From: Eubacteriales bacterium | Lineage (GTDB): Bacteria; Bacillota; Clostridia; Oscillospirales; CAG-272 | Direction: 5' to 3' | NCBI GenBank assembly: GCA_045650025.1 | Contig: JAZRQR010000157.1 | Location: 12,682 to 76,681 of the forward strand | DNA: 64,000 nucleotides | Shown here: positions 16,766-26,991 of the stretch, in pieces | Layout of the letters: the number at the start of each line of letters is the position of its first letter | How positions within the stretch are numbered: position 1 is the stretch's first letter | Notes under the pieces: model-generated | The model's input: only the letters and a program-made list of their open reading frames with translations | Databases searched by the model: none | What the model was told of the DNA's origin: nothing | Position numbers and translations under genes: made by a program

Positions 16766-16850
16766 AATGTCCCCTTTTCGCCTTTTCTCTACATTAGTAT
16801 ATATTGCCGCGCCCAAAAAGTCAAGAGGTGTCGCGCAAAAACGCAAAATA

Positions 16851-16887
16851 AGGGCTGAACCTTGCGGTTCAGCCCTTGGTTTTTTTG
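16851..16887. terminator. Bidirectional-looking terminator after the giant surface-protein gene
   Basis: AGGGCTGAAC-cttgc-GGTTCAGCCCT (16851-16876). It is followed by TGGTTTTTTT on the plus strand and by TATTTTGCGTTTTTG on the minus strand. Confidence 0.7.
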
Positions 16888-16890
16888 TAA

Positions 16891-19800
16891 TTACTCTGCG
16901 TCAGTTTCCTGCGCGGGAGCTTCCTCCACAACGGGAGCTTCCTCAACTGCGGGAGCTTCCTCGACTACGGGAGCTTCCTCGACTGCGGGAGCTTCCTCAA
17001 CTGCGGGAGCCGCTTCAGGAGCGTTGGGCTGCAGCTTTACTGCATGACCACCGGTCAGAGTGATCATCTTGATTGCCTGCAGCGAGAAGCCGTTTGCCTC
17101 AACAGTCAGTGCCTTGTTCAGGTCGCCGTCTGCCAGAACCTTGACTCTCTTGCAATCGGATGCGATAAGCTTCTTAGCCTTGAGCGAGTCAATGTCAACC
17201 TTGTCGCCGTTCTCGTAGTGCTCGTTGAGCGTGCCTACGTTTACAGCACCCATCTTACCGGTTGCTGCGCTTGCAACCAGAACAACTGCGCCAACTGCCT
17301 GAGCGTCGGTCATCAGTGCGTCAACCTCGGTTGCGGTTACGTGCTCGACTACTGCAACGGGAGCAGCCTCAGGAGCGGGCTCAACAACAGGAGCAGCTGC
17401 TGCTACCTGTGCGTCGGTCTTTTCCTCTTCCACAGCCTCAGGAGCGGGCTCTTCAGTAGCAGGACCCTTGGGGAAGATGTTGTGACCGTACAGGATGTAC
17501 GCAACGATCAGAACTGCAATGAATACCAGCAGGATGATCAGGAAGATCCACCAGCCGTTCTTCTTATCCTCTTCATCTTCGATGGACTCGGTGCCGGACT
17601 CGGTTTCAGAATCGGGAGCAGAAGTATCCTCGGTGGTTACGGAGGACTCGGGAACGTTGGTGCCGGACTCGGTCTCAGTCTCAGTCTCAGTCTCGGTCTC
17701 GGTCTCCTCGGGAGTGGTTTCTTCAGGAGTGGTGGTCTCCTCGGGAGTGGTTTGTTCAGGAGTGGTAGTCTCCTCGGGAGTGGTCACCTCAGGGGCGGTG
17801 GTCTCTTCGGGAGTGGTCACCTCAGGGGTGGTCTCTTCGGGAGTAGTTTCCTCGGGAGTGGTTTCCTCGGGGGTAGTCTCCTCAGGAGTGGTTTCCTCGG
17901 GAGCCGTGGTCTCCTCGGGAGCGGTGGTCTCGGTCTCGGAGGTTTCGGGCGTTACAGCCTGGGTGTGACCGCAGACGCATTCGCCGTTTACGTGAGTATG
18001 CGCCTCAACGTTCTGGTAGCCACATACGGAACAGGTCTGCCAGTGGTTCGCATCGTCGTAGTGATAGGTAGTGCCAAATCCGTGTGCTTCCTGGATCTGA
18101 ACCTCATAGAAGTCATAATCCTGTGCATCACTTGCAAACTTATCAGCGGGATCGTAGTATCTGACGCCCCACTTCCACTTGCTTACGTAGTGGCCGTTTG
18201 CATCGGGAGCTGCAACTGCTGCAAATGCAGGAACGTCAGCAGCGTCCAGAGTCTGACCAAGGTCAGTATTGATGGTAACAGTCTTGATCAGGCTACCGTC
18301 CAGACCGTAGAAGTTTACGGTGTAGAGGTACTGCTCGTAGTTGACTGCATAGTAGGAGAAGTGCGTGGTGGTGAAGGTCAGAGCGTCGCCCTCAGAGACA
18401 ACGGGCTGCTTTTCAACACCGTTTGCGCCTACGAAGTAAGCGTAACCGTGGAACTTAGCGGAATCGTTTGCGAAAGGAACGGTGATGGTTGCCTTACCGG
18501 AGGTAAATGCAGAACCGGTCAGATCGAAGCTGTAAACAGCATCGTAGTTATAGAAGTCTGCATCTGCAGGCCACTCGATCTCTTCACCCACAACGGTGGA
18601 AACTGCGAAGGAGATCTCGTCTGCAGTTGCGTTGCTCTTGATGTTGAGCAGTGCTGCGTTGTCCAGCAGAATGGTAACTGCGTGTCCGGAGCCGTTTTCG
18701 CCAACAACCACCTGCAGGGTAACGTCAGCGTTCATCTCCGCCAGCTGGAAGAGAACTGCGGGGATAACGGAGGATGCGGTCCAACGGTTGCCTACCTGCT
18801 GGTAGTCACCCATGGTCAGAACGAACGTGTCGCCGTTCAGGGTTACGTTGCTGTTTGCATCAAAGTGTGCAACAGCGGTATATTCTGCATAGTAATCGGT
18901 GTGTGCGGTTACGTTGTTCAGTGCGGTGCCGTTTGCCTGGTACCAGCCCTTGAAGGTGTAGCGGTTCACCAGATCCATCTCCTTAGCGGGAGCTTCGGGA
19001 GTTGCGGGAACGGTGTTGTACTTAACCTCTACGGAGGAGATCAGCTTGTCGCCTGCATAGAAGTTAACGGTTGCCCACAGGTCAGCCTCGTAGGTTGCAT
19101 GTGCGGTTGCGGGAACGATTGCGGTGTTCCAGCCCTTGAAGGACAGAACGTCAGCAATTGCCTCTACCCAAGCGTTCTCGGGAGCAGGCATGGTGCCGTA
19201 GGGTACTTCTACCGTGTAGGACTTGTCTGCTACAACAAAGGTTACGTCAGCGGTGTAGTCAGCTACGTAGGTAGCGTCACCGGTAACAACGGGAAGCTCT
19301 GCGCCAAAGCCCTTCCAGCCCTTGAAGTTCAGGGTGTCGAAGAGGTACAGATCAGCGTCCAGAGAAGGAACGGTACCGTATGCGAAGGTCTGGGTGTACA
19401 GAGTGCCGAGAACGTCAAAGGTGATGGTGTACTCATCCACAACCTTCTTAACGGTTACAACGGTATCTGCAGCGGGCATAGTCAGCAGTACGTCACCGTA
19501 CGCGTCCTGTGCAACCAGCGTATAGCCCTCGGTCTTGAGGTCGGAGTAGTAAGGAGCGAGCTGCGCGCCGTAAGGCAGGAAGCCCTCGAAGATCAGGCTG
19601 CCCTTCTCGTCCACGAACTTAACAGAATACAGATCTGCAACGGTTACGGTGAAGGAGACGTCAGAGGTTACGTCGCGGCTGGGAACGTAGTTGCCCAGAG
19701 TGATGCTCTTACCAAATGCGGTAATGGTTACATTATCAAGAATATTCTTGAGCCAAGCGGTGGGGTTGTAAGTAACGTCGAAGCCAAAGCTGAATACGCC

Positions 19801-21744
19801 GTTGCCCTTGTAGGTATCGGTCAGCTTAGCATCCTGGAACTTCTCGGGAATGAGATTGAATACCAGGTCGATCGCACGGTCGGTCAGGTTGAATGCAGCC
19901 TGTGCCTTAGCAGAATCGGGGATTCTGTTCTGGAACTCTGCAAATGCGCTGACCATGCGTACAACGATTGCCTGTGCGCGAGCGGGGCTGACGTTGAACT
20001 TGTTTGCAACGCGTGCGGTTGCTGCTGCGAGAAGCTCGCTGCCAACCAGTGCGTCTGCATCCTTAAGCTGGGTCAGTGCTGCCAGGTCGCTGTAAGTCAC
20101 TACCTGAGTCAGGTTATAAACAGACTGGAGAGTGAAAGACGCTTCCTTGCCGTTTACGGACTCGGGAACAGCCTCGATCAGGATATCGCCGTACTTCTGG
20201 AACAGCTCCAGAGCAGGACGAATCTCTGCCAGCTTTGCCATGAATGCATCTTCCTTAGCGTCGGTTGCGGATACGTTATCCAGCAGATACTCCATAACGT
20301 CTGCGAACTGCTCATAGGTCAGCAGATCGAACAGGGACAAGAGCTCACCAACGGTTGCGCTCTCGCTCAGGCCTGCAACGATGGTCTGCTTGGTCTGATC
20401 GGAAACGCCTGCATGATTGAGAGCCTTGGTCAGAGCCATGGTGAATGCGCCGGGAACCATCACGTTCACGTGCACGTCACCGTCCAGACCCTGTGCAAAA
20501 TCATATGCATCGTATGCAATGTCAACGGTCTTGAGCAGTGCCTTTGCAGCGTTGCGAACCAGTGCAACGTCGCCACGCAGTGCTACGTTGAACTCGATCT
20601 CGCTGTCAGCCTTACCCTCAGCACCCAGAACAACGTCATAGGTAGCCAGTACACCGTCGTTGCCAACGTTTGCTACGTCGGTGGGGGTAACGGGGTCAAC
20701 CATCAGAGCGCTCTTGAGGCCCTGAACCGAGATCAGCTCGCCATAGTTGCCGGACTCAACGGTGCTCAGCAGCTCTGCCATCTGGGTAATGCTATAACCC
20801 TCGACCTCAACAACCTTGTAGCCGTTTACGGTTACGTCAGTCACCTTACCGTTGTAGATCTCGGTAGCAGTTGCCTGGATGAAGGCGGTGATAGCGCTCT
20901 TGTATGCGCTCTGAGCGTTGCCGGTTCTGACGTCGCCCAGTACGTCTGCAAGAATCTGGTTGTAGTTGCTTGCATCCACGTTTACGTACAGCGTTGCAAC
21001 GCCGTTCGCATATACCATTTCGTACTCGCCGTAGTTCACGGGCAGACCGTTTACGTCAGCAACAACCTTTTCCAGGATGTCAACGGTAGTACCCTTGATT
21101 ACGATCTCGTCAGCGCCCATGGGAACGATCACGTAGGTGTTGTCCCACTTCACGTACTGACCTGCAACAGCAGTACCCTGGTATGCGGGGATCAGCTTCT
21201 TGTAGCCAAGCTCCTGCTTGTTAACGGCTACACCATCGATTTCCCAGATAACGGTACAGGTGGGAGAAACGTAGTCAGGATTTTCTTCCTTCTTCTTCTG
21301 TTCTTCCTTCTGATACTCGATGGATTCCTTGATCTCGTCAAAGCTTGCGCCGTTCTGAACTGCGTCTACAACGGTGTCAATGTCACCGATGTGCTCGTCG
21401 TTTACCAGAACGTCCTCGATAACGGTGTCAAACTTTTCCTTTGCATCGTCATCGTCCTTTGCGCCGAGAATCTCGTTTGCGGACTCTTTAAAAGATTCGT
21501 CGCTTTCATACTTTTCATTGACGTAATCCTTCAACTCCTGCTCCATAGCGTCTTTGTCTTCCATATCCTTGACGCTATTGTACTTGTTGATCAGGTCAAT
21601 GAACGCACTCATATCCTTGCCTGCAAAAGAGGACAGGAGAGAGTTGTCTGCAGCGAACGTGGGAACAGTGATTACAGAGATAAACATTGCCAGAGTCAAC
21701 AATGCTACCAGTACTCTGCAACCAAGTTTTGCGGTTTGCTTCAT
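16891..21744 (-). CDS. Giant bitopic surface protein (1,617 aa): signal peptide, Listeria-Bacteroides (Flg_new)-type repeats, Pro/Thr/Glu linker, one TM helix, cytoplasmic uL15-like domain and (A/V)PxVEE tandem tail
   Basis: Track ORF 16891..21759. The start is moved to the ATG at 21744 (MKQTAKLGCRVLVALLTLAMFISVITVPTFA), 8 nt after GGAGG. Repeats include YTITFDVLGTLYTQTFAYGTVP...LNFKGWKGF, VTFVVADKSYTVEVPYGTMP...LSFKGWN and VNFYAGDKLISSVEVKYNTVP...YTFKGWY. The TM helix is WWIFLIILLVFIAVLIVAYILY (nt 17488-17553). The tail is GAVNVGTLNEHYENGDKVDIDSLKAKKLIASDCKRVKVLADGDLNKALTVEANGFSLQAIKMITLTGGHAV (nt 17029-17340). Confidence 0.9.
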   Translation of the reverse strand: MKQTAKLGCRVLVALLTLAMFISVITVPTFAADNSLLSSFAGKDMSAFIDLINKYNSVKDMEDKDAMEQELKDYVNEKYESDESFKESANEILGAKDDDDAKEKFDTVIEDVLVNDEHIGDIDTVVDAVQNGASFDEIKESIEYQKEEQKKKEENPDYVSPTCTVIWEIDGVAVNKQELGYKKLIPAYQGTAVAGQYVKWDNTYVIVPMGADEIVIKGTTVDILEKVVADVNGLPVNYGEYEMVYANGVATLYVNVDASNYNQILADVLGDVRTGNAQSAYKSAITAFIQATATEIYNGKVTDVTVNGYKVVEVEGYSITQMAELLSTVESGNYGELISVQGLKSALMVDPVTPTDVANVGNDGVLATYDVVLGAEGKADSEIEFNVALRGDVALVRNAAKALLKTVDIAYDAYDFAQGLDGDVHVNVMVPGAFTMALTKALNHAGVSDQTKQTIVAGLSESATVGELLSLFDLLTYEQFADVMEYLLDNVSATDAKEDAFMAKLAEIRPALELFQKYGDILIEAVPESVNGKEASFTLQSVYNLTQVVTYSDLAALTQLKDADALVGSELLAAATARVANKFNVSPARAQAIVVRMVSAFAEFQNRIPDSAKAQAAFNLTDRAIDLVFNLIPEKFQDAKLTDTYKGNGVFSFGFDVTYNPTAWLKNILDNVTITAFGKSITLGNYVPSRDVTSDVSFTVTVADLYSVKFVDEKGSLIFEGFLPYGAQLAPYYSDLKTEGYTLVAQDAYGDVLLTMPAADTVVTVKKVVDEYTITFDVLGTLYTQTFAYGTVPSLDADLYLFDTLNFKGWKGFGAELPVVTGDATYVADYTADVTFVVADKSYTVEVPYGTMPAPENAWVEAIADVLSFKGWNTAIVPATAHATYEADLWATVNFYAGDKLISSVEVKYNTVPATPEAPAKEMDLVNRYTFKGWYQANGTALNNVTAHTDYYAEYTAVAHFDANSNVTLNGDTFVLTMGDYQQVGNRWTASSVIPAVLFQLAEMNADVTLQVVVGENGSGHAVTILLDNAALLNIKSNATADEISFAVSTVVGEEIEWPADADFYNYDAVYSFDLTGSAFTSGKATITVPFANDSAKFHGYAYFVGANGVEKQPVVSEGDALTFTTTHFSYYAVNYEQYLYTVNFYGLDGSLIKTVTINTDLGQTLDAADVPAFAAVAAPDANGHYVSKWKWGVRYYDPADKFASDAQDYDFYEVQIQEAHGFGTTYHYDDANHWQTCSVCGYQNVEAHTHVNGECVCGHTQAVTPETSETETTAPEETTAPEETTPEETTPEETTPEETTPEETTPEVTTPEETTAPEVTTPEETTTPEQTTPEETTTPEETTPEETETETETETETESGTNVPESSVTTEDTSAPDSETESGTESIEDEEDKKNGWWIFLIILLVFIAVLIVAYILYGHNIFPKGPATEEPAPEAVEEEKTDAQVAAAAPVVEPAPEAAPVAVVEHVTATEVDALMTDAQAVGAVVLVASAATGKMGAVNVGTLNEHYENGDKVDIDSLKAKKLIASDCKRVKVLADGDLNKALTVEANGFSLQAIKMITLTGGHAVKLQPNAPEAAPAVEEAPAVEEAPVVEEAPAVEEAPVVEEAPAQETDAE
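16915..17022 (-). repeat. In-frame 18-bp tandem repeat (5 good plus 1 degenerate unit) encoding APAVEE/APVVEE
   Basis: The units GGGAGCTTCCTC[C/A/G]AC[A/T][A/G]C start at 16915, 16933, 16951, 16969 and 16987. There is a degenerate unit at 17005-17022. Confidence 0.9.
17668..17950 (-). repeat. In-frame low-complexity repeats encoding (ET)n and (TPEET)n linker
   Basis: 6-bp CTCAGT/CTCGGT units run over 17668-17708, then ~15-bp units (GGAGTGGTTTCCTCG-like) continue to ~17950. The protein reads TTPEETTPEETTPEETTPEETTPEVTTPEETT...ETETETETETE. Confidence 0.85.
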
Positions 21745-21899
21745 TGGTTTTTCCTCCAACTATAAAGATTTTTAAGACTCGGGATATTTCAAACCCCTGC
21801 CGGTTTTTCCGACTTGGGCGCCTTAACATTACATAATATACACGCACGGCTTCAACGCCCAAAAAGGCATAATTCACCCAATGCGCCTATATTACGAGT

Positions 21900-21928
21900 A
21901 TTGTATCACATTTTTTCAGTTTTGTCAA
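21900..21928 (-). promoter_or_regulatory. Near-consensus sigma-A promoter for the giant surface-protein gene
   Basis: The reverse strand reads TTGACA (plus 21923-21928), N17, TGaTACAAT (-10 at plus 21900-21905). This implies a ~150-nt 5' UTR before the ATG at 21744. Confidence 0.7.
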
Positions 21929-24351: not shown

Positions 24352-26991
24352 TCATTCACTTTTCTTATACCATTGCTCCTCGGGGGCCGAGATGGGCCCT
24401 GCCTCCCAGCACGCTCTGTCCTGATTGCCCAGCGCATTGCGGAAGATGACCATTTCGTCGCCTTCCAGGTCGTAGGTGTATTCCACGGATGCATGCACGC
24501 CGTTGCCCGAGAATTTGGACTCATAGCGGCGGAACATGCCGTCCTCTGCGGGGAAAAATCCTTCGCCCGTGCCGTGGTATTCGGTCAGCTCCCAAACGTC
24601 CTGCAAGGTGTCGCCCTTGTACAGCGCGGTCATCTTGACAATGCCCACACCGGGTGCAAACCAGTATTCCTTCTTGCCGCCTCGATAGCCCCAGCCGGTG
24701 CCCTCAAGTCCACGCAGATCAAACGCGATATGTCTGCAGCCCTCGAACGTGCCAGCCTCAACCGTGACCGTGCAATCATCAAGCACGTCCAGCGTCAAGT
24801 CAACCTTCTGCCTTCCACATTCAACCTGCTTGGTTTCTAAGTGATAGCCGGGTACCCAAGCATCGCTCCAGAGATACCCTGTAGCTTCAGCCAAAATATC
24901 GTACAGGAAATTATGCAGCACACAAAATTCATAATCTCCGCATTTTGCCATGTCCTTGCCTTCGAACGAATAACGCCAGTTCCCCTCCCACGTATATCCC
25001 TTGCCGTTGTAAAGTAGTACATAAGGGGAGAAGAAATTCCATCTGCCAAATTCGGTGAAGTCGGGGTTGGCGTCCGGATCGGTATCCCAGATGCGCTGCA
25101 TGACCTCAGTTGCAATCGCCGTGTGCACCTTCTGACGCTTGGTCTCTGCCAGCTCTGCCGCGCGCTTCATGATGCCGCTGACGTCACGCAACAGCCATTT
25201 GCCATCCTTGGGATAGATATAATTGTGGCGCGCATTGAGAATATGGCCCTGCCAAGTATCTTTATAGCCCGTGACCTGTGCAAAGTAGCCGTTGCTGACC
25301 ACCGCTCTGCCATTTTTGTAGCTTGTGACCTCAAAATAGTTTTCCGCTGCAAAAACATAGGGGGAATCCTGATCTACACTAACATATTCCCAGCGATTTC
25401 CGGGAGCAAAAGGAACCATCCACTCTCCACCGCAAATTTTGTAAGAGCTCAGCTCCCAGCTGTGGGTATCGGAATACCTCGTGTTGGTCTGCGCGATCAA
25501 TCCCACACCCGGAGCAAATGCAGTTTTGGTATAGGTAACATAGGAAAGATTTCCTGTCATTTCATATACCGTACAATGTGCGAACGTACCTGCCGCCACC
25601 GTAACGGTTGCATCATTTTCAAGGCATGTCAGCGTCATGCTGCCATCGGACGACTTGACGCTTTGCCCCGGGAACAGATCAGGATCGTAAAGCAGTCCGT
25701 CGCAGAGAGAGGTATTCCAGAACAGCGAATCATTGAGTTCTGCCGTGCCGCCGCGAGTATATCCGGGCTGCTCCCAGAAGTAAAGCTTTTTGCCAACGTA
25801 CTGATAGACCTCACCGCGCGTGCCGTACGCCATACCGTCGCGGTCAAACGCCTCGATCTTGGGCGCGGCTGCCTTTTTCTGTTCTGTCCAAAGAGAAGAC
25901 AAGGCATTTGCATAGTACACATCCTCGGGAGTCAGAAGCTCCAACACCTTGCGGAAGGCATCCATACCCTGCTCCGTGTGGTTTTCATCCATGCTGTAGC
26001 AGCCGTACCAGAACCACGTATAGCCCACGGCCTTGACAAAGCCGTGCCGCTCAAGCTCGGGGATCTGCTCCTCGCGCATGAAGGCAAGGCGTTCCTCGCC
26101 CTTATATTTTTGGTATTCTTTGGGAACAACCGCCTGCATCACCGACTCATTACGGCTTGCAATGGCTGCTGCCTTGATTTTTGCCAGCACCTCATCGTTT
26201 GCCTGCCCGGGCAGCCACCAGTAGCCCAACAAAAGTACGTCAGCAAGCATGTATTGCTTATCTGCCGAGTCATCCAAGCCCTCAACCGAGGACAGCACAG
26301 CACGGTACTCGGGCTCAAAGCCTGTTTTGTCATTCTTGATACGCCACAGCTTGAGGTGCTCCACCTGCTCGCGCACGCGCTGTACCAAAGTCTTGTTTTC
26401 GTCGTATTCCTTTTCGATCATACCGTATTCCTTTCTCAGTTGTCGTCTCCCCTCGCTCAGACGCCACTTGACCGTTCCGACCGGTACGGAAAGCTTTGCG
26501 GCGATCTCGGCAACAGACAGCCCACCGAAGTAATGCAGCTCGATCGCCTCGCGGATCTTGTCGCTCAATGCATCCACGTATAAGTGCAGCTGCTCGTCAC
26601 GCATTGCCTCTGCAACGCCGACAACGCCTGTCAGCTCGTCAAGCCCGCTCTCATCCTCGCCACCCAAGTCCATGGTCTCCAAAAGGTGCAGGCTGATATC
26701 CGCCGTCACGCTTCTGTAGTGTGTAACAAGGCTACGGGCGCGATTCTTGGCGATGGCGCATACCCAAGAGCCGAATTTGCCCGGCTCCTTGAGAGATGCC
26801 AGGTTCATCCACGCCGACACAAAGGCATCCTGCGACGCATCCTCTGCAGAGAACGTGTTGCCCGTCACCTTATATGCCGTGCCCTTGACCGCACGCTCGT
26901 GCCGCAGCACCAGCGCGTCAAATGCTTTGGAATCGCCAAGCAGCGTCATTTGCACCAAGCTCTCGTCGTTTTTCTCGTTGTGCTTGTTCAT
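24352..26991 (-). CDS. ECF-type sigma-70 factor fused to a ~650-aa C-terminal extension with an internal domain duplication
   Basis: Track ORF of 879 aa. Region 2 is FSAEDASQDAFVSAWMNLASLKEPGKFGSWVCAIAKNRARS. Region 4 is LSVAEIAAKLSVPVGTVKWRLSEGRRQLRKEY. I see no TM segment. The duplicated modules are TVTVAAGTFAHCTVYEM...FAPGVGLIAQ...SWELSSY and TVTVEAGTFEGCRHIAF...FAPGVGIVKM...VWELTEY. Confidence 0.85.
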   Translation of the reverse strand: MNKHNEKNDESLVQMTLLGDSKAFDALVLRHERAVKGTAYKVTGNTFSAEDASQDAFVSAWMNLASLKEPGKFGSWVCAIAKNRARSLVTHYRSVTADISLHLLETMDLGGEDESGLDELTGVVGVAEAMRDEQLHLYVDALSDKIREAIELHYFGGLSVAEIAAKLSVPVGTVKWRLSEGRRQLRKEYGMIEKEYDENKTLVQRVREQVEHLKLWRIKNDKTGFEPEYRAVLSSVEGLDDSADKQYMLADVLLLGYWWLPGQANDEVLAKIKAAAIASRNESVMQAVVPKEYQKYKGEERLAFMREEQIPELERHGFVKAVGYTWFWYGCYSMDENHTEQGMDAFRKVLELLTPEDVYYANALSSLWTEQKKAAAPKIEAFDRDGMAYGTRGEVYQYVGKKLYFWEQPGYTRGGTAELNDSLFWNTSLCDGLLYDPDLFPGQSVKSSDGSMTLTCLENDATVTVAAGTFAHCTVYEMTGNLSYVTYTKTAFAPGVGLIAQTNTRYSDTHSWELSSYKICGGEWMVPFAPGNRWEYVSVDQDSPYVFAAENYFEVTSYKNGRAVVSNGYFAQVTGYKDTWQGHILNARHNYIYPKDGKWLLRDVSGIMKRAAELAETKRQKVHTAIATEVMQRIWDTDPDANPDFTEFGRWNFFSPYVLLYNGKGYTWEGNWRYSFEGKDMAKCGDYEFCVLHNFLYDILAEATGYLWSDAWVPGYHLETKQVECGRQKVDLTLDVLDDCTVTVEAGTFEGCRHIAFDLRGLEGTGWGYRGGKKEYWFAPGVGIVKMTALYKGDTLQDVWELTEYHGTGEGFFPAEDGMFRRYESKFSGNGVHASVEYTYDLEGDEMVIFRNALGNQDRACWEAGPISAPEEQWYKKSE

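Follow-up and report, generated by a model that had tools for sequence, protein, structure and literature searches.

The window analysed here is a stretch of 64,000 nucleotides from the metagenome-assembled genome (MAG) of an uncultured gut member of the Clostridia, an Eubacteriales bacterium (GenBank assembly GCA_045650025.1, contig JAZRQR010000157.1, positions 12,682 to 76,681 of the forward strand). Its minus strand carries the gene of a 1,617-aa exported surface protein, which is tethered by a single transmembrane (TM) helix and ends in a 197-aa tail. The core of this tail is a true homologue, and a non-ribosomal paralogue, of the globular C-terminal domain of the ribosomal protein uL15, as hidden Markov model (HMM), sequence and structure comparisons show. 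The tail is one member of a large family of C-terminal cassettes and not a singular oddity. The uL15-like module probably serves for docking at the inner end of membrane-anchored surface structures.

Two long antiparallel open reading frames (ORFs) cover the region. The minus-strand frame (16891-21759) translates coherently and is the gene; the plus-strand ORF (17044-21765, 1,573 aa) was rejected as a Cys/Gly/Val-rich nonsense shadow frame without homologues. The ATG given in Table 1 is the likely start codon, because the listed TTG at 21759 overlaps the GGAGG ribosome-binding site (RBS). Residue numbers follow the numbering of protein P0001, which is counted from TTG 21759. A promoter-like site and a terminator-like hairpin bracket the gene, which therefore appears to be monocistronic.

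The initial annotation of this locus had recognized a single TM helix, which was retained; its span of 17488-17553 was corrected to the one in Table 1. The large extracellular part was likewise retained, with a mature part of ~1,365 residues in place of the ~1,390 first given. The ectodomain matched PF09479 in the Pfam scan with an E-value of 0.0043, which is under the cut-off. A Cys/His-rich motif, HWQTCSVCGYQNVEAHTHVNGECVCGH (17962-18045, minus strand, residues ~1239-1266), is located directly before the Thr/Pro/Glu stalk, where it may form a small knot outside the cell, stabilised by metal or disulfides. At the C-terminus, the APxVEE repeats, put at five and a half in the initial annotation, correspond to an 18-bp repeat in 5.4 copies (16913-17010). 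The same AP[AV]VEE repeat matches the C-terminal low-complexity extensions of true ribosomal proteins from other phyla (L17, L31, S6, L10, S2 and S16). These matches were considered as homology and judged to be probably compositional; the enrichment of ribosomal proteins among them is curious.

Table 1. Features of the gene of the surface protein, in the 5' to 3' direction of the minus strand
Feature	Position	Strand	Residues	Evidence and remarks
Promoter-like site, TTGACA-17-TACAAT with upstream TG	21900-21928	-		11/12 consensus matches, consensus match only; ~155 nt 5' of the start codon
RBS, GGAGG	21753-21757	-		Sequence read; 8 nt 5' of ATG 21744
Coding sequence of the 1,617-aa surface protein	16891-21744	-		Stop codon 16891-16893
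Sec-type signal peptide, MKQTAKLGCRVLVALLTLAMFISVITVPTFA/AD	21649-21744	-	~6-37	Sequence read
Ectodomain, ~1,230 aa	17953-21648	-		Cys/His-rich motif before the stalk; weak similarity to Listeria-Bacteroides repeat (Flg_new)
Thr/Pro/Glu-rich stalk (TTPEE repeats), presumably wall-spanning	17575-17952	-	1270-1395	Tandem repeats of 15 + 33 bp at 17701-17931
Single TM helix, WWIFLIILLVFIAVLIVAYILYG	17485-17553	-	1403-1425	Sequence read and hydropathy scan of relatives
Whole tail, 197 aa	16894-17484	-	1426-1622	Sequence read
Acidic Ala/Pro/Glu leash	17353-17484	-	1426-1469	Sequence read
Family-specific cap, motif VxAxE(A/V)DxLMTDxxA	17260-17352	-	1470-1500	Two short helices and a strand (AlphaFold); not in uL15
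uL15 C-terminal-domain-like core	17029-17259	-	1501-1577	HMM, BLASTP, PDB profile, AlphaFold, Foldseek, alignment
C-terminal acidic extension (45 aa) with APxVEE repeats	16894-17028	-		Confined to this orthologue group
Terminator-like hairpin, 12-bp stem	16850-16877	-		Directly 3' of the stop codon

The resemblance of the tail to the C-terminal half of uL15, first aligned by eye, was confirmed; the two computational checks on which the initial annotation had let it stand or fall, an HMM match and a structural match, were both positive. PF00828 matches tail residues 1506-1573 with an E-value of 2.5e-13 and 50.7 bits (cut-off 21.5), and with 56.3 bits in a six-frame search of the genome. BLASTP aligns the tail with the uL15 of the same genome at 44% identity over 68 aa (E 2e-10). 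The tail contains both the cap motif VTATEVDALMTDAQA and the core signature FSLQAIKMITLTGG, the latter of the general form KVLAxGxLxKxLTV...FS[LV]QA[IV]KMIxL[TA]GG. When a profile of 44 family members was run against the sequences of the PDB, solely uL15/eL18 chains were retrieved, the best being those of Firmicutes uL15 (E 7e-15). The PDB matches are limited to profile positions 38-114; positions 1-37, which represent the cap, had no match among PDB sequences. The AlphaFold model of residues 1460-1585, built on the family alignment, has a predicted local distance difference test score (pLDDT) of 88.7, and the top 50 Foldseek hits in the PDB are all uL15/eL18, with a template modelling score (TM-score) of ~0.5 on the 126-residue query. 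Over 72-78 columns, the root-mean-square deviations of these hits are 1.1-2.3 Å; for the uL15 chains of Listeria, Mycobacterium, Staphylococcus and Enterococcus they are ~2 Å over ~76 columns. The predicted cap elements (H17-23, H26-32 and E34-38, residues ~1476-1497) have high pLDDT and are packed onto the core. Neither the PDB profile search nor Foldseek retrieved a non-ribosomal member of the uL15 fold among solved structures. The 71-aa peptide that the initial annotation had quoted as uL15-like is present and is encoded by 17038-17250; the interval 17029-17340 originally assigned to it encodes residues 1474-1577, including the N-terminal cap.

The tail protein is not the ribosomal uL15. 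The genome, a MAG of 225 contigs, contains exactly two matches to PF00828, namely this tail and a 146-aa rplO product, and the true rplO is intact on another contig (C218), where it is followed by secY. Against TIGR01071, the rplO equivalog model, the tail scores 43.7 bits, below the cut-off of 77.95, and matches model positions 72-142 of 144. The lack of the basic N-terminal 70 residues, the score below the equivalog cut-off and the position of rplO beside secY elsewhere all speak against a ribosomal copy. While uL15 is a stand-alone spc-operon product of ~146 aa encoded before secY, the module is the end of a 1,617-aa protein that is exported and TM-tethered, and whose gene appears to be monocistronic. 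Among 151 genomes of the same order, this genome is the only one with a second full copy of PF00828. The NCBI annotation of some proteins with the module reads 'uL15 family ribosomal protein', which is a mislabel and needs correcting; where PF00828 serves as a single-copy marker, its counts can come out too high in such lineages.

The module was aligned with 21 true uL15 sequences from the same order (uL15 residues are numbered separately in this comparison). Residues invariant in both are N78, G88, L96, K110, L112, G115, K119, A125, F128, S129, A132, I136, G140 and G141. The N-terminal extension of uL15 threads into the 23S rRNA. This part, residues 1-70 (a Gly/Lys/Arg-rich extension with PLxRRLPKRGFxNxF), is missing from the module, and an acidic helical cap is found there instead. 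The cap may replace the rRNA-stabilised N-terminal segment of uL15, so that the domain would fold autonomously. The last helix, which is lysine-rich in uL15, seems to be remodelled in the module (K133 to I/V, K135 to M, A138 to L), and E137 and E144 are also altered. Residues conserved in the module only are D1480, D1485 and A1488 of the cap, and G1501, K1527, K1529, L1531, K1564, M1565 and L1568; K1527, K1529 and K1564 are near-invariant new lysines. The net charge is -23 for the whole tail, about -7 for the cap and +3.0 for the core, as compared with +0.6 for the C-terminal domain of true uL15.

The tail most likely lies on the cytoplasmic side of the membrane, in agreement with the initial annotation. 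This is because the protein has a signal peptide and a single TM helix, and because it is homologous to a family with a positive-inside signal. Within 12 residues of the TM helix, Lys and Arg are more numerous after than before the helix in 103 of 132 proteins carrying the module (carriers), the reverse being true of 7; the means are 3.1 after the helix and 0.94 before it. Carriers with an N-terminal anchor have RKRK-type clusters after the helix. The cytoplasmic side is further supported by the fact that the same module ends carriers with an N-terminal anchor only, or with no TM helix.

An exhaustive HMMER search for the module yielded 1,716 clusters (50% identity) at E<=1e-3 and 783 at E<=1e-10. 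Carriers are rare among the genera of Clostridia, the module being present in 2 of 217 genera in an even sample of 399 genomes of the class. Its place is the C-terminus, or close to it, in proteins of 76-3,676 aa; in most other carriers no more than ~5 residues separate it from the end. Most carriers have ~100-130 aa between the end of the TM helix and the KVLAxG motif (~115 aa in this protein), and TM helix, leash, cap and core are therefore a fixed cassette. It terminates proteins of very different kinds, namely adhesin-like giants, small TM-only products of SipW/TasA-type fibre operons, and proteins with extra basic YjbR-like domains. In some carriers the sole TM helix is N-terminal or there is none, and minimal carriers are without an ectodomain. 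Within the genus the tail is 62-81% identical, compared with 49-65% for the ectodomain, and the module is ~45-50% identical across lineages with unrelated ectodomains. The module is evidently under strong purifying selection. No description of it was found in full-text literature searches.

Of 177 carriers, 39 have between one and three copies of a basic 135-aa domain ('domain X', +6.8), among them P0043, P0137, P0151, P0163 and P0185. Every copy is upstream of the module and, where a TM helix is nearby, downstream of that helix. Domain X had no sequence match in Pfam or the PDB; its model (pLDDT 88.5) has a weak fold match to YjbR and YdhG/DUF1801, a putative nucleic-acid-binding fold.

The whole gene, including the tail, is present in essentially all of the 15 other species or genomes of the genus. 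In one of these (G158:C30:8618-9052) a second, 461-aa frame matches the TM-plus-tail region at 35% identity, and some members of the genus may carry two tail genes. Homologues of residues 40-760 were found within the same orthologue group only. A motif scan of 185,579 species genomes gave 391 relatives, the best 80 of which are all from uncultured MAGs, mostly from the gut of herbivores or ruminants. There are one or two module genes per genome (16 carrier genomes), and a sorting tag shared by many surface proteins of one genome was rejected on this ground. Carriage of the cassette by phages or plasmids was also rejected, since tblastn matched only true rplO there.

The neighbourhoods of 80 loci were clustered. 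In ~18 of these, small carriers (~170-190 aa, N-terminal TM helix) directly follow a SipW-like signal peptidase (NF046067, E 3.7e-14), and the signal peptide of adjoining proteins scores above cut-off for the SipW-cognate type (TIGR04088). A conserved gene order, with C2, SipW, carrier and one or two TasA-like genes, is seen in loci L053, L061, L065, L071, L087, L091, L094, L096, L098, L099 and others. A SipW-type signal peptide on giant carriers, considered as a bridge to these fibre operons, was rejected: none of 87 N-termini of large carriers has the motif, and ordinary K-rich Sec-type signals are present instead. No conserved partner gene of the giant carriers was found in the neighbourhoods. 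In the window, the neighbours are genes for YitT/DUF2179, an SDH_alpha-family (serine-dehydratase-like) protein, a 5'-nucleotidase and an extracytoplasmic function (ECF) sigma factor fusion. The last (24352-26991, minus strand) encodes an 879-aa protein with an N-terminal ECF sigma factor (Sigma70_r2, r4) and a long C-terminal part with a faint DUF3108-like match. An operon partner within the window was rejected in view of the gene's own promoter-like site and terminator and of the unrelated housekeeping functions of its neighbours.

None of the 16 genomes of the genus, this one included, has a sortase (PF04203). Sortase is present in 8 of 8 sampled genomes of other families of the order, in 5 of 7 sister genera of the family, and in 120 of 250 genomes of the class (48%), corresponding to 82 of 155 genera. 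Two of 68 further carrier genomes have a sortase, and in both the carrier gene is on a very short contig. Overall, sortase was found in 2 of 84 carrier genomes versus 120 of 250 (Fisher p = 4e-17 without correction for shared ancestry); p is 0.0015 if the carriers are counted as ten independent lineages, a number which is a guess. Most carriers are walled, because 18 of 21 have penicillin-binding proteins (PBPs); the genus keeps three PBPs. Carriers are thus, with few exceptions, Clostridia of the gut in which peptidoglycan is present and sortase is not. No LPXTG motif occurs upstream of residue 1403. Swapping of the anchor, with the same ectodomain attached by LPXTG in sortase-bearing relatives, was considered; no homologue of the ectodomain was found in the 7 sister genera or outside the orthologue group.

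The conserved unit is composed of membrane anchor, leash and module, and would serve to dock a ligand of the cytoplasm to the inner end of a surface structure anchored in the membrane. Docking in general is given a probability of roughly 0.6; it is suggested because minimal members consist of anchor, leash and module only, and because the module is conserved across unrelated ectodomains. As to the ligand, RNA or a ribosomal particle bound in a non-canonical manner is the leading candidate, tentatively and at less than even odds. It is favoured because no other ligand of the fold is known, because the core, itself basic, retains K110 and K119 (and N78), and because the core frequently occurs together with basic domains of a fold that putatively binds nucleic acids. 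To our knowledge, 23S rRNA is the only known ligand of the uL15 fold. A loss of charge was considered as an argument against RNA binding and rejected, the core being more basic than the domain of true uL15. The initial annotation had offered docking for co-translational secretion, RNA binding and signalling as guesses. The first of these cannot work for the protein's own chain, because the tail is synthesised last; the location of uL15 away from the ribosomal exit tunnel also weighs against it.

Several points tell against docking to RNA or ribosomes. The canonical site on the 50S subunit is already filled by the resident uL15 in mature ribosomes, and the part of uL15 most deeply embedded in rRNA is missing from the module. 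The presumed rRNA face appears remodelled: the module has variable or hydrophobic residues at K104, K124 and K133, and an invariant Met in place of K135. Carrier neighbourhoods have no link to translation genes, the recurrent neighbours being SipW/TasA-like genes or lineage synteny, and the present gene stands, monocistronic in appearance, amid unrelated housekeeping genes. The TM flanks of this orthologue group are ambiguous (KK before the helix, one K after it). Phylogeny confounds the anti-correlation with sortase, and the carrier genomes are MAGs of uncertain completeness. The docking proposal itself is drawn from sequence and models, with a hypothetical ligand.

A bolder form of the RNA/ribosome reading, which must be regarded as quite unlikely, is a sortase-independent 'inside anchor': in walled gut Clostridia that have lost sortase, the module would grip rRNA, or particles of the large subunit that are mature, hibernating or still being assembled, and would do so at the membrane. 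If it were true, these particles, the most abundant large bodies of the cytoplasm, would act as ballast and as a platform for local translation, both for giant adhesins and for TasA-like fibres. The domain of a universal ribosomal protein would then have been exapted as a physical link between the ribosome pool and the architecture of the cell surface.

Nearly as likely as an RNA or ribosomal ligand, and equally tentative, is a protein-protein module: a uL15-like domain without RNA binding that homo-oligomerises or binds a cytoplasmic landmark or a cytoskeletal, secretion or fibre-assembly factor, and so would cluster or position the anchors by which giant adhesins and TasA-like fibres are fixed in the membrane. 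The invariant hydrophobic or otherwise altered residues of the last helix (positions 133, 135 and 138) fit such a role, but these replacements may merely contact the new intramolecular cap. The small carriers directly after SipW in fibre operons (~18 of 80 loci), the one or two genes per genome and the lack of translation-related genes in carrier neighbourhoods also favour it; the giant carriers, however, are without a conserved candidate partner gene, and the present gene appears to be monocistronic among housekeeping genes. The charge of the core, more basic than that of true uL15, and its frequent company of basic domains with a putative nucleic-acid-binding fold argue for the RNA or ribosomal ligand rather than for a protein partner.

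A passive anchor is unlikely. The folded domain would here be a ligand-less stopper or stop-transfer aid, which keeps the TM helix of a large load-bearing protein in the membrane of walled bacteria without sortase. The scarcity of sortase in carriers relative to the class and to the sister genera, the PBPs in most carriers and the absence of LPXTG before the TM helix are consistent with this role. A stopper would be expected at the membrane, however, and not on a 45-aa acidic leash, and an inert plug would not be expected to conserve so many polar residues, among them several invariant lysines and the QA[IV]KMI signature. Minimal carriers, moreover, have no ectodomain to hold, and some carriers are without any TM helix. 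Still less probable is a regulatory tail which, in the manner of membrane anti-sigma factors, would sequester or release a cytoplasmic factor when, for instance, the ectodomain binds a ligand, comes under tension or undergoes regulated proteolysis. An ectodomain, one TM helix and a conserved cytoplasmic domain do resemble single-pass signalling proteins, and the ECF-sigma fusion gene is ~2.6 kb upstream on the same strand; but a divergently oriented gene separates the two, and the carrier gene is preceded by a promoter-like site of its own. Across loci, no linked regulator is conserved, and minimal carriers are without a sensing ectodomain. That the tail is extracellular, or that its resemblance to uL15 is due to chance or to an artefact of assembly joining rplO to a surface gene, is highly improbable: the weak positive-inside signal of this orthologue group is outweighed by the signal peptide with a single TM helix, the family-wide signal (103 versus 7) and the carriers without a TM helix, the HMM and fold matches are highly significant, and the same fusion recurs in 15 genomes of the genus and in 1,716 clusters while the true rplO is intact elsewhere in the genome.

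The globular half of a universal ribosomal protein has been duplicated, re-capped and attached, in well over 1,000 clusters, to membrane anchors at their inner end. The identity of the ligand would show how some abundant, uncultured Clostridia of gut and rumen organise or anchor their largest surface structures without sortase, and could expose a new link from the membrane to the ribosome or RNA.

Among known systems, a 2023 review of extraribosomal functions (PMC10931766) lists uL15 solely as a product of the spc operon, and no extraribosomal role of uL15 was found in it. The nearest published precedent for a membrane-tethered ribosome binder, by analogy, would be YqjD/ElaB/YgaM, C-tail-anchored membrane proteins of E. 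coli which bind and inactivate ribosomes (bioRxiv 10.1101/2024.08.16.608256). The likeness is a cytoplasmic domain which a single TM helix tethers to the inner face of the membrane; those proteins, however, are small, tail-anchored and without an ectodomain, while ribosome binding by the present tail is hypothetical. No relationship to them in sequence or fold was seen, PF00828 being the sole family above cut-off in the Pfam scan of the tail. With the tapA-sipW-tasA operon of B. subtilis the family shares that its small members directly follow a SipW-like peptidase and stand beside SipW-cognate proteins, whereas the present gene is outside such an operon and has an ordinary Sec signal peptide. 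We know of no uL15-like protein in the B. subtilis operon as described. The LPXTG/sortase signal is alike in being a C-terminal retention device for large surface proteins, composed of a stalk, a hydrophobic helix and a cytoplasmic tail. Its tail consists of a few basic residues, whereas the 197-aa tail described here is made of an acidic leash and a folded domain, and anchoring by it would be non-covalent and in the membrane.

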